Positions 38,030 through 41,173 of a DNA stretch of 64,000 bases are shown one piece after another. A program made the position numbers and the translations under genes. Numbering within the stretch: the first letter of the stretch is position 1; every line of letters begins with the position of its first letter. The notes beneath the pieces were generated by a model that was not told the DNA's origin, searched no databases, and saw nothing but the letters and a program-made list of their open reading frames with translations. This DNA comes from Promethearchaeota archaeon Loki_b32 (GTDB taxonomy: Archaea > Asgardarchaeota > Lokiarchaeia > Sigyniarchaeales > SOKP01). The stretch covers positions 32,001 to 96,000 of the forward strand of contig NJBH01000011.1 of NCBI GenBank assembly GCA_005223125.1. The letters run 5' to 3'.

Positions 38030-39748
38030 TTATACAACATATTTCCATGGTCTTTGTCTTTTTAATCCATAAGCTTTTTCAGCATATTCCTCAACCATGC
38101 GATGCGTATTGAAAAAAGCAGCTAGGGAAATAGCACATTGCATCTTGTAGAGCCACTCATCGTGATTCATATATGTCGGGATAACTTGGTTTTCTAAAAT
38201 ATCATAAAGAGCGTTTGAATCAATATCCCAACTATTTGAAACTCCAGGGTCATCTGGATTTGAATCATCGGGTCCAATAGCCCAACCAGCTAAATGATTC
38301 TTCTTATATCCTTCTAACCACCAACCATCTTGGACTGATAAATTCAATATTCCATTTAACGCGGCCTTCATTCCACTTGTACCACTTGCTTCCCGATATC
38401 TATTAGGAGTGTTGAGCCAGACATCTACTCCTGATACGAGCATATGGGAAAGATCCATGTTATAATTCTCCATGACAACAACCTTTACACCATAATTATC
38501 ATATAGATATTCGCCCGCTTCATGGATTTTCTTAATATAATCTTTTCCCATTTGGTCTTTTGGATGAGCTTTTCCTGCGAATATGAATTGAATGTGATCT
38601 TTCGCAATTTTACCCAATCTGTCAATATCGTGAAAGATTAGTATAGCTCTTTTGTAAGTTGCAAATCGTCTAGCAAATCCGATTGTAATTAATTCCTCAT
38701 CAAGTAAATTCCAACTATGACCTTTTTGGTAATTTATCAGATTGAATTTATTCTCAATGTGGTTATCAAAGAGATCTAGTGGATCTAATTCTATCGCATT
38801 TTCAAGCACAGCGGGATTTGCCCTCCAATTTGGCCATTTTTTAGTAAACATTTTCCTAAACGGTTTAGATACCCAGAATGGTAAGTGAATACCATTGGTA
38901 ATATAGTCAATTTCATATTGGGGGAACATTTGTCTACTTATGTCACCATGCTTTCGGGCAACAGCATTTCTGTATCTAGAAAGAGCCATACCCAGAAATG
39001 TCATATTTAATTCTCCATTGTCATTTGCTAGATCTCTAATTTCCTTCGGCATTCTATTTCCAAATACTTTTTTAACCAAATCTTGTTTGAATCTATCATG
39101 ACCTGCAGGTACAGGGGTGTGAGTTGTAAAAGCAACTTTTTCTTTAACTTTTTCAATGCTTCCCAATCGATTATACAATTCTAAAGTAGCAAAAGAACCA
39201 TGTCCTTCATTAAGATGATAAGTTTCAATATTATTGTAGCCTAAAGATTCCAGAAGTTTTACACCTCCAATCCCTAATATCATTTCCTGTACGATTCTAT
39301 TCCAACGACTTGTGCTATCATATAAAGAACCAGTCATTTTTTTCATCCAATCTTCATTTCCTGGAATATCTGTGGTTAAAAGATAAATTGGAAGAATATG
39401 TCCTGATTGCCCTATTACTCGATAGAGCCACGCGCTTACAAGAACGTCTTTGTCCTCAATTCTCATTGTAATTGGTTTTTCTACTTTTTCAAATTCATAG
39501 TAAAAGTTCCAAGCAATTTCTTTTTCTTTTTGTTCACCAAATTCATTAAAAAATTGATAAAAATATCCAGCACTATAGCATAAACAAAGTCCAACCATTG
39601 GGATTTCCAAATCTGCAGCTGACCGAACAGTGTCCCCTGATAATACACCTAAACCCCCACTATACGTAGGAATATTTGAATCTACAGCTATTTCCATAGA
39701 AATATATGCTACATTGGTATTTGATTTTAAATCTTCATCGATTTCCAT
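38030..39748 (-). CDS. glgP: Alpha-glucan phosphorylase
   Basis: YSGGLG.L.GD, HLNEGH, FTTHTPVPAGHD, ARRFATYKR, EASGTSGMKAALNG. Confidence 0.93.
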   Translation of the reverse strand: MEIDEDLKSNTNVAYISMEIAVDSNIPTYSGGLGVLSGDTVRSAADLEIPMVGLCLCYSAGYFYQFFNEFGEQKEKEIAWNFYYEFEKVEKPITMRIEDKDVLVSAWLYRVIGQSGHILPIYLLTTDIPGNEDWMKKMTGSLYDSTSRWNRIVQEMILGIGGVKLLESLGYNNIETYHLNEGHGSFATLELYNRLGSIEKVKEKVAFTTHTPVPAGHDRFKQDLVKKVFGNRMPKEIRDLANDNGELNMTFLGMALSRYRNAVARKHGDISRQMFPQYEIDYITNGIHLPFWVSKPFRKMFTKKWPNWRANPAVLENAIELDPLDLFDNHIENKFNLINYQKGHSWNLLDEELITIGFARRFATYKRAILIFHDIDRLGKIAKDHIQFIFAGKAHPKDQMGKDYIKKIHEAGEYLYDNYGVKVVVMENYNMDLSHMLVSGVDVWLNTPNRYREASGTSGMKAALNGILNLSVQDGWWLEGYKKNHLAGWAIGPDDSNPDDPGVSNSWDIDSNALYDILENQVIPTYMNHDEWLYKMQCAISLAAFFNTHRMVEEYAEKAYGLKRQRPWKYVV

Positions 39749-40003
39749 TTTTCTTCACTTTTTGAATTTTAATTCGCTATTTTTATAGTAGTTAAGAATT
39801 TTATATAATACTTTTAAAATCCATAGTATAAAATCTTATCTTAAAATAGTATTGATAAAAAGTAATGTTCAGAATAGAGTAATAAATCTTATAATAATAA
39901 GTTAAAAAAATAAAAAATCCAACCGGAACTACAAAAAACAGGACTTAAGAGAGATACAGTTCAAGATATAATTAATGAAATTAAAAAAAAAAAATTTAAA
40001 ATT

Positions 40004-40681
40004 TTAGATTTTTAGGGGTTTGCCACCTTCTTCTAATATTTCTACTTTTATGCTTGGATCCTTTTTCTCAAGTAATTCCCTGAATTTGCTGAGATCTTTG
40101 CCCCAATTTTGCCTTTATACATTATTTATGCATAAATTATGCATTGGAATTGCGATCTTAGGTTTCACATCAACAACAGAATCAGTAGCTTCATCAAAAT
40201 CCATAGTGTACGTTCCACCGCAAGGCATCATAGCAACAGTTATATTTCTACTTGCTAGATCTTTCATTTCAGGGATTCGTTCAGTATCTCCCGCATGATA
40301 TACACTCTTGTCTTCTGCTGTTACTATTATACCTGCCCATTCATTTCTTTTGGGATGATTTGGCTTCTTAATATTGTATGCTGGAACTAACTCGATAGAA
40401 AGATCTTTATAGTCAAATGAATCCCCTAACTTCAACGGTGTTCCATCAAATTTTTGTAAACTGCTAGCAATACTTTCAGGACCGATTACAACCGTATCAT
40501 CCTTCATAAGATTTTGTATACTACTTGAATCAAAATGATCACTGTGTGAATGTGTTGAAACAATTATATCTGCTTTCTCTTCTCCTTTTTTAATTTGGTA
40601 AGGATCAAGGTAAATAATTCTTCCACTTGGTGTTTTTATTTTAAAGGCAGCATGACCAAGCCATGTAATTTCCATAGTCAT
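40004..40681 (-). CDS. MBL-fold metallo-hydrolase interrupted by a 30-nt insert; 215 aa once the insert is removed
   Basis: TWLGHA, DPY, THSHSDH, YHAGDT, IPMH; frame resumes after the stop as NWGKDLSKFRELLEKKDPSIKVEILEEGGKPLKI*. Confidence 0.85.
40108..40137 (-). other. Candidate bulge-helix-bulge mRNA intron (30 nt)
   Basis: Exon helix UUCCAA/UUGGGG, central helix UGCA/GGCA (3 of 4 paired), bulges UAA and AAA, 9-bp intron stem; canonical cuts give I-P-M-H-N-W-G. Confidence 0.75.
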
Positions 40682-40810: not shown

Positions 40811-41173
40811 TTAATCTTCTTCTTCAAATTTCCATTCGGGACTTACGAGATAAATTTTTTTAGTTATTCCATGATTGTCTTCTTTGACTAAATCGAGTTC
40901 TTTAAATCTTTCGAAGAATAATTTATTTCTAAAATTAGGGATTTCATTAATAAAACGAGGTTTGGGTATGTAATTCGGAGTATTTAGACTGGTTTTTTTA
41001 GATGTTATTTCATTTATTAGTTTTTTCTCTAAATTTTTATTATTCTTAAAGGTAGGGTGTTCAATTTTCAGGAAATTTGTATTTTTTAGACTAAGTTCCT
41101 TTATTGGTGTGGTAGATTTTAAAATTCGACAAGTGGGGCAATTAATCTCATCCAAACCGTGAATACACGTCAT
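40811..41173 (-). CDS. Hypothetical protein with N-terminal CxH...CxxC motif
   Basis: MTCIHGLDEINCPTC. Confidence 0.6.
   Translation of the reverse strand: MTCIHGLDEINCPTCRILKSTTPIKELSLKNTNFLKIEHPTFKNNKNLEKKLINEITSKKTSLNTPNYIPKPRFINEIPNFRNKLFFERFKELDLVKEDNHGITKKIYLVSPEWKFEEED

Follow-up and report, generated by a model that had tools for sequence, protein, structure and literature searches.

Confirmed splicing within an archaeal coding sequence is limited, in the literature that we searched (PMC2738675, PMC7714728), to the bulge-helix-bulge (BHB) intron of the cbf5 pre-mRNA of Crenarchaeota (Watanabe 2002; Yokobori 2009, PMC2738675). This intron is short, lies in a conserved catalytic motif, has a relaxed BHB structure, shows patchy gain and loss, and is found in hosts with a hetero-oligomeric EndA endonuclease (PMC2738675). 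In Haloferax, EndA also acts on the HVO_1309 mRNA, where a 46-nt BHB intron is located in the 5' untranslated region and leaves the reading frame unbroken (Schwarz 2020, PMC7714728). A 2026 preprint considers the arrival route of tRNA introns in Asgard archaea the central open problem, and it found no general mobile-element route (10.64898/2026.10.13.758758).

Two mobile systems are close to the locus described here. The WHO elements of Torulaspora and Lachancea yeasts are free-standing LAGLIDADG genes placed downstream of a host gene. Their homing gives the host gene a substitute 3' end and pushes the old end downstream, with displaced fragments that begin near one position; the 3' phylogeny is discordant, and old endonuclease genes decay and get deleted (Coughlan 2020, PMC7282813). 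In phage collaborative homing, a free-standing endonuclease is paired with an ORF-less, self-splicing group I intron (PMC2988022, PMC10448857).

We analysed a window of 64,000 nucleotides from the Lokiarchaeial genome Loki_b32 (contig NJBH01000011.1, positions 32,001 to 96,000), in which a hydrolase gene is interrupted by a 30-nt insert. We consider it very probable that the insert is a BHB intron, removed from the mRNA by EndA and RtcB to give a 215-aa hydrolase. Nearly as probable is that the intron was delivered by a 3'-replacement homing cassette, and the two readings taken jointly are still likely. As in cbf5, the candidate intron is short, relaxed in its BHB structure, patchily distributed and placed in a conserved catalytic motif within the coding sequence of a host with a hetero-oligomeric EndA. 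Unlike cbf5, the host is an Asgard archaeon, the gene is another one, the insert is one of several in the genome, and a delivery vehicle is visible; moreover, cbf5 splicing was demonstrated experimentally, whereas splicing here is deduced from sequence. In the literature searched, which covered only a minority of subscription journals, neither a coding-sequence BHB intron from Asgard archaea nor a WHO-like carrier for such an intron came up. The BHB intron and the WHO-like carrier each have precedents, and what the present analysis adds is the tested series of three states and the endonuclease relic in this window. The features of the locus are the following:

39932 to 39991, plus strand: endonuclease relic, made up of the final 20 or so codons of a LAGLIDADG gene (free-standing, with two motifs) that runs convergently towards the hydrolase stop
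40004 to 40107, minus strand: exon 2, 34 codons and the stop, C-terminal helix and strands; probably a replacement 3' end brought by the cassette
40049 to 40100, minus strand: foreign tract; these 52 nt differ from near-identical intronless strains at 22 positions, whereas the 90 nt upstream of the intron differ at 1
40101 to 40149, minus strand: whole BHB motif with its exon parts; outer helix 40149-40144/40106-40101, central helix 40143-40140/40113-40110
40108 to 40137, minus strand: predicted BHB mini-intron, 30 nt; 9-bp stem 40136-40128/40122-40114 with a loop of 5 nt; 40113-40110 form the 3' strand of the central helix, and the in-frame TAA is at 40117-40115
40138 to 40681, minus strand: exon 1, UPF0173/UlaG-like metallo-beta-lactamase (MBL)-fold hydrolase, ending in the PMH motif and the first base of an Asn codon

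The hydrolase gene runs on the minus strand from 40681 to 40004. Its unspliced frame codes for 188 aa and ends at the TAA, and the C-terminus continues downstream in the same frame; the deletion of 40137-40108 gives a 215-aa MBL hydrolase reading PMHNWG, exactly as in the intronless orthologs. A preliminary description of this DNA had reported the in-frame stop, the resumed frame, the BHB motif and the 215-aa product of the 30-nt removal. All of these were recomputed and hold, on the minus strand, which it had not given. Exon 1 matches the Pfam model Lactamase_B_3 (6e-28), and its match to PRK00685 is below the cut-off of that model; an intronless ortholog matches PDB 3kl7 and 3x2z. On these matches, the gene product is classified as a UPF0173/UlaG-like MBL-fold hydrolase. 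In the AlphaFold model of a full-length ortholog, the part encoded by exon 2 includes a helix at residues 188-197, with a pLDDT of about 95 across residues 191-215. Orthologs have been deposited in databases as truncated proteins of 182-193 aa. Three other genomes (G012, G030 and G062; loci L076-L078 and L083-L085) carry tandem full-length paralogs of the hydrolase, about 73% and 60% identical to the query, neither of which stops at the site. At 40811-41173 on the minus strand, upstream of the hydrolase, an ORF of 120 aa is conserved; it has a Cys/His motif at its N-terminus and no Pfam match, and it occupies this place in most orthologous loci.

The exon helix of the BHB motif consists of 6 bp, including two G.U pairs, and the central helix (UGCA/GGCA) of three pairs and an A.G mismatch. 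The bulges, UAA and AAA, are 3 nt each and lie on opposite strands. Cutting after the second base of both bulges regenerates the intronless sequence, so that the EndA rule predicts cuts between 40138 and 40137 and between 40108 and 40107, a register fixed by allele L065 (see below). The 50-nt motif has a folding z-score of −3.3. In the minimum-energy fold computed with ViennaRNA, a 6x6 internal loop stands in place of the central helix, and for this reason we assigned the BHB geometry by the rule and by covariation, not by minimum energy. The fourth pair of the central helix is mismatched (A.G or A.A) in 17 of 19 alleles and paired in two; fully paired central helices are found in alleles L025, L065, L096 and L098. 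The prevalence of this mismatch implies that an EndA of relaxed specificity would be needed. An Rfam search gave no match up to E 1; group I and II introns and catalogued RNA families were rejected on this result and on the length of 30 nt, too short for a ribozyme core. The spliced junction (window 40138-40144 and 40107-40103) folds like a tRNA anticodon arm, with a 7-nt loop, CAU occupying positions 34-36 and the intron placed canonically at 37/38, a likeness that may be due to chance. ARAGORN found only 23 tRNA genes in this genome, and tRNA-Met is not among them; BHB fits made to the introns of these genes were of low reliability.

Then, we compared the site across the orthologs, as the preliminary description had proposed for presence, absence and covariation of the insert. 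A 30-nt insert occupies the site in 13 of the 44 genomes of the genus, and the other 31 read the predicted spliced sequence. Metagenome contigs bring the set to 23 intron alleles, among which 22 inserts are distinct, and the hosts range down to a protein identity of about 67%. In all 23 the insert is exactly 30 nt long, at the same site and with an in-frame stop, which falls at the same codon in 22 alleles and has moved to the loop in L098. Over 19 alleles, compensatory changes affect 6 pairs, with 12 cells altered on both sides. None of 500 shuffles reaches that and slid controls give at most 2 pairs, although the shuffles ignore relatedness and kin alleles are not independent.

Two alleles are informative in the manner of a natural experiment. 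L065 lacks a repeat at the junction and allows a single register, that of the BHB cut. In L098 the Met has become Cys, and the whole motif has shifted by one base, with all 4 bp of the helix paired and a stem of 9 bp. The junction His and Asn codons are invariant in 22/22 intron alleles and vary in 8/33 (His) and 5/33 (Asn) intronless ones. The mean p in the intron is 0.19, compared with 0.60-0.68 at exon synonymous sites, and the first two bases of the stop codon are constant even where their stem partners mutate. The always-kept stop suggests selection against translation of the unspliced mRNA.

Two of the circumstances that the preliminary description had named as fatal to its reading, an assembly error or a one-off footprint flanked by AATT, do not apply. 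The insert recurs at one and the same position across 13 genus genomes and additional metagenome contigs, which rules out an assembly error. A transposon footprint was rejected: the repeat is absent from L065 and broken in L057 and L096, and there is no second copy in the genome, where a search for other sequences similar to the intron found none. A consensus-intron pattern search of metagenome contigs returned no matches.

The same alleles bear on the possibility that the ribosome, and not EndA, bypasses the insert, either by hopping between matched AAU codons 30 nt apart or by reading through the stop. In this genome AAU codons do flank the insert, the stop lies in a hairpin, and a hop would yield the same protein, in an arrangement that loosely resembles T4 gene 60. 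However, alleles L057, L065 and L096 break the matched codon pair and still have an intact exon 2, and hopping leaves the pairing between intron and exon unexplained. Readthrough, for its part, would insert ten variable residues beside the metal-ligand His, and none of 120 homologs has such an insertion. We therefore regard recoding as extremely improbable.

A further explanation is that the cassette simply knocks the gene out, the insert remaining unspliced and the hydrolase truncated or dead. It would fit with the distant paralogs of the gene and with the absence of spliced RNA from the metatranscriptome contigs (see below); also, dead exon 2 copies that have been displaced remain recognisable for a time. 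Against it, exon 2 is open to its native stop in all 23 intron alleles (0 stops and 0 frameshifts), with a pN/pS of 0.195 (95% interval 0.12-0.28), which indicates that it is under purifying selection in these alleles; exon 1 of the intron alleles is likewise under purifying selection. Within the genus, the pN/pS of exon 2 is 0.143 in intron alleles versus 0.135 in intronless genes. The stem and the helix are also preserved by compensatory change and one-base re-registering, and a similar insert is found in the single-copy gene gyrB. Overall, a knockout appears very improbable.

In fact, BHB-like inserts break at least four other genes of this genome (G000): gyrB (53 nt, C56 near 37006, minus strand), cdhD (33 nt, C45:47178-47210, plus strand), psmA, coding for the proteasome alpha subunit (29 nt, C4 near 22685, plus strand), and an EF-2 paralog (30 nt, C3 near 75804, plus strand). 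Their deletion restores conserved motifs, and gyrB and cdhD are single-copy, with one tblastn match each. In a distant relative (L063), the neighbouring glycogen phosphorylase gene carries two more inserts of 33 and 29 nt (around positions 2981 and 4313); their helices have 4 bp and their bulges 3 nt, and their deletion mends the frame. In a strict BHB scan of the whole genome, the hydrolase locus was the only match with the (3,3) geometry; decoy geometries give 0-2 matches each, so that the scan itself is not significant. With loose settings the genome scan showed no excess above the decoy geometries, and the strict scan missed real-looking inserts with weak exon helices.

The machinery that splicing would require is encoded in this genome, which has a two-subunit EndA (catalytic and structural paralogs, encoded in the C18:184175 and C2:78430 regions of G000) and an intact RtcB. 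The best match of the catalytic subunit is PDB 3p1z/3ajv, which we take to be the broad-specificity EndA of Aeropyrum pernix, and the catalytic His and the KPR loop region are kept in the alignment. According to the proposed mechanism, the pre-mRNA would fold into the BHB, EndA would cut both bulges behind their second base, and the exons, joined by RtcB, would give the 215-aa hydrolase; on an unspliced mRNA, translation would end at the intron stop codon.

RNA data came from four metatranscriptome runs of a single study, in the form of contigs, with 3-6% from this genome. Among contigs of close relatives, a first shows the exons joined, a second breaks off 4 letters beyond the junction and a third 2 nt short of it; the intron and the remaining exon 2 are covered by none of them. 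The 3' flank of the joined contig, GGT AAG, equals that of intronless DNA contigs of close strains, while this genome reads GGC AAA. For this reason, the joined contig counts neither for nor against splicing, and a spliced transcript from an intron-bearing allele was not seen in the contigs of the four runs. The earlier proposal that expression depends on splicing by the tRNA machinery has strong comparative evidence behind it, and the RNA contigs do not show splicing of the intron allele. The high probability that we assign to splicing derives from the exact presence and absence of the insert, the covariation, the cut register, the selection on exon 2, the presence of the machinery and the similar inserts.

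The way in which the intron arrived was examined on its distribution. The intron is absent from strains that are 97-100% identical in exon 1. On the exon-1 tree, its distribution needs 13 changes, of which well-supported branches impose at least 8, and the grouping of all intron alleles in one clade is rejected (AU p 0.012). The flank immediately 3' of the intron co-travels with it, and discordance within the gene is highest in the 60 nt past the site (Spearman 0.29 vs 0.53-0.82). The foreign tract of this genome, defined against intronless strains about 3% different in exon 1, is one-sided and extends towards the endonuclease. Three intronless orthologs (L006, L015 and L021, from G009, G031 and G008) have the first 60 nt of exon 2 nearest to intron-type tracts, and represent either precise intron losses or intron-free cassettes.

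Three states of the locus were found. In the first, intronless state, loci L059-L061 carry an old endonuclease relic. In the second, invaded state (L092), exon 1 is identical to that of L060 across 540 nt and is followed by an intron one base different from ours, by a foreign exon 2 four bases different from ours, by an intact endonuclease gene and, beyond it, by the old 3' end of L060, starting from 10 nt after the insertion site. In a second assembly, L093, which comes from the sample of L060, the endonuclease and the displaced end are found again at 99.9%. The direction of the change is a gain, because L060 cannot be obtained from L092 by simple deletion: L092 lacks the first exon 2 bases of L060. 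The third state is that of this genome, with the intron and the foreign exon 2 in place, the endonuclease deleted and a relic left, lying 12 nt beyond the hydrolase stop codon; neither the cassette nor this relic had been noted in the preliminary description. The sequence of this genome agrees with the cassette between the intron and about 39990, and with the old relic from 39944 downwards, a switch that fits a deletion between the two direct repeats. On these matches, the relic is a hybrid that combines the old relic with the end of the newer cassette, as that deletion would leave it. Displaced old 3' ends occur in five loci (L092/L093, L096, L097, L099 and L025), and genome G035 bears one; four begin within about 10 nt of the insertion site, and that of L096 at codon 12.

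The association with the endonuclease was evaluated in other loci. In G025, an intact LAGLIDADG gene lies convergent to the hydrolase, and its stop overlaps the hydrolase stop; in Pfam its protein matches only LAGLIDADG_3, and no zinc finger was seen in it. A search for loci related to this endonuclease returned that of G025 alone. Six further endonuclease homologs were looked up to test the prediction of this neighbourhood, and all six adjoin this hydrolase gene, so that a convergent, free-standing LAGLIDADG gene is found at the hydrolase 3' end in 7/7 loci examined. Most homologs have two acidic LAGLIDADG motifs, while P0132 is the C-terminal half only. Four of the six further loci carry the intron, and the other two (L097 and L099) are intronless and have altered codons at the site instead. 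Endonuclease relics are present in 7/13 intron-bearing and 0/31 intronless genomes of the genus; the Fisher p of 4.5e-5 overstates this difference, and independent pairs are about 4:0 (p about 0.125, underpowered). The link between intron and endonuclease is not obligatory, as two endonuclease loci are intronless and six intron-bearing genomes have no relic. The same LAGLIDADG family occurs elsewhere in this genome, at G000 C67:98897-102289 (L094) and C56:2989-3777 (L095), both on the minus strand; of these two members, the 1131-aa one is encoded directly upstream of etfB-etfA-like genes.

These exceptions leave some room for an intron that is spliced but was moved by ordinary short-tract recombination, with the endonuclease as an independent resident of the slot. 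Other mosaic tracts, without an intron, do occur within 6 kb: the glycogen phosphorylase gene has short high-divergence tracts versus close strains at 38040-38160, 38580, 38760 and 39420 of the window (up to 35 differences in 120 nt, no insert), and short-tract exchange seems common in this region. Nevertheless, in L092 the intron, exon 2 and the endonuclease came as one block and the old 3' end was displaced from about the insertion site; the intron is found in 5/7 endonuclease loci vs 13/44 genomes overall; and the foreign tract is one-sided. We consider ordinary recombination unlikely, and retain delivery by a homing cassette as the preferred reading. In a close strain, the same glycogen phosphorylase gene is called as two pieces of 60 and 435 aa (L061:2177-3895), without a large insert compared with this genome, probably owing to a point break.

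We propose a cassette in which the intron travels as cargo, together with a replacement exon 2 and a LAGLIDADG gene in convergent orientation. Its endonuclease would cut sensitive alleles near the PMH-NW codons, and repair from the donor would install the cassette and push the old 3' end downstream. The intron, by interrupting the cut site, would probably make the new allele resistant; the altered codons of the two intronless endonuclease loci fall at this same predicted site. In this genome, the endonuclease would then have been lost by direct-repeat deletion, leaving the intron, the foreign exon 2 and the relic.

In its architecture, the carrier matches the yeast WHO elements point for point: the free-standing LAGLIDADG gene downstream of the host gene, the replaced 3' end, the old end pushed downstream with fragments beginning near one position, the discordant 3' phylogeny and the decaying endonuclease (PMC7282813). 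It differs in being archaeal, in bearing an intron at the site within the replacement 3' end, and in the convergent orientation of the endonuclease gene. Furthermore, the WHO family proper has an intein-like domain fused to a zinc finger, with HO/VDE homology, whereas here only LAGLIDADG_3 was found in Pfam, so we liken the two by architecture and do not file the carrier as a WHO member. The locus also resembles phage collaborative homing (PMC2988022, PMC10448857) in having an ORF-less intron at the likely cut site, although here the intron is a 30-nt, presumably protein-spliced BHB intron in a cellular genome, and the host gene has its 3' end duplicated. With respect to the Haloferax intron (PMC7714728), the proposed action of EndA on mRNA is the same, and the position, length and effect on the reading frame differ.

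The patchy distribution and the carrier also bear on whether the spliced intron is a host regulatory switch. The preliminary description had compared it to the eukaryotic HAC1/XBP1 system, in which an endonuclease cut and joining of the mRNA by an RtcB-type or tRNA ligase restore the full protein; that system relies on IRE1 stem-loops, is regulated by stress and is fixed in the species. The chemistry would be the same, an unspliced mRNA yields no full-length protein in any of the 23 alleles, and the intron is more conserved than exon synonymous sites. However, the likeness stops at the chemistry. Most orthologs are intronless, including those of near-identical strains and of one sample in which the endonuclease end of the cassette is present too (L060 and L093); the intron distribution tracks a selfish endonuclease, and lateral spread together with structure explains the conservation. 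The proposed regulatory logic is thus unsupported for an intron that is patchy and cassette-delivered, and we judge a switch to be decidedly improbable. Our preferred reading is that the intron is tolerated as a passenger or serves as a resistance device, and is not a host regulator.

As to its wider meaning, the locus offers a concrete route for the arrival of an mRNA intron, with the states before, during and after it among near-identical strains, and it shows that the carrier can erase itself. More tentatively, and with the balance somewhat against so broad a claim, Asgard archaea might carry WHO-like cassettes that use a 30-nt EndA-spliced intron as a resistance device. Such cassettes might be a general engine of intron gain in the mRNAs, and perhaps the tRNAs, of Lokiarchaeia, installing an intron and then vanishing by deletion, which would leave genes dependent on the tRNA-splicing machinery. 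For direct tests, the locus combines a short RNA with an enzyme pair and an endonuclease-target pair, both of them defined. If true, routine EndA/RtcB splicing of mRNAs in the closest archaeal relatives of eukaryotes would alter the annotation of their genomes, and would bear on the origin of non-spliceosomal mRNA splicing.
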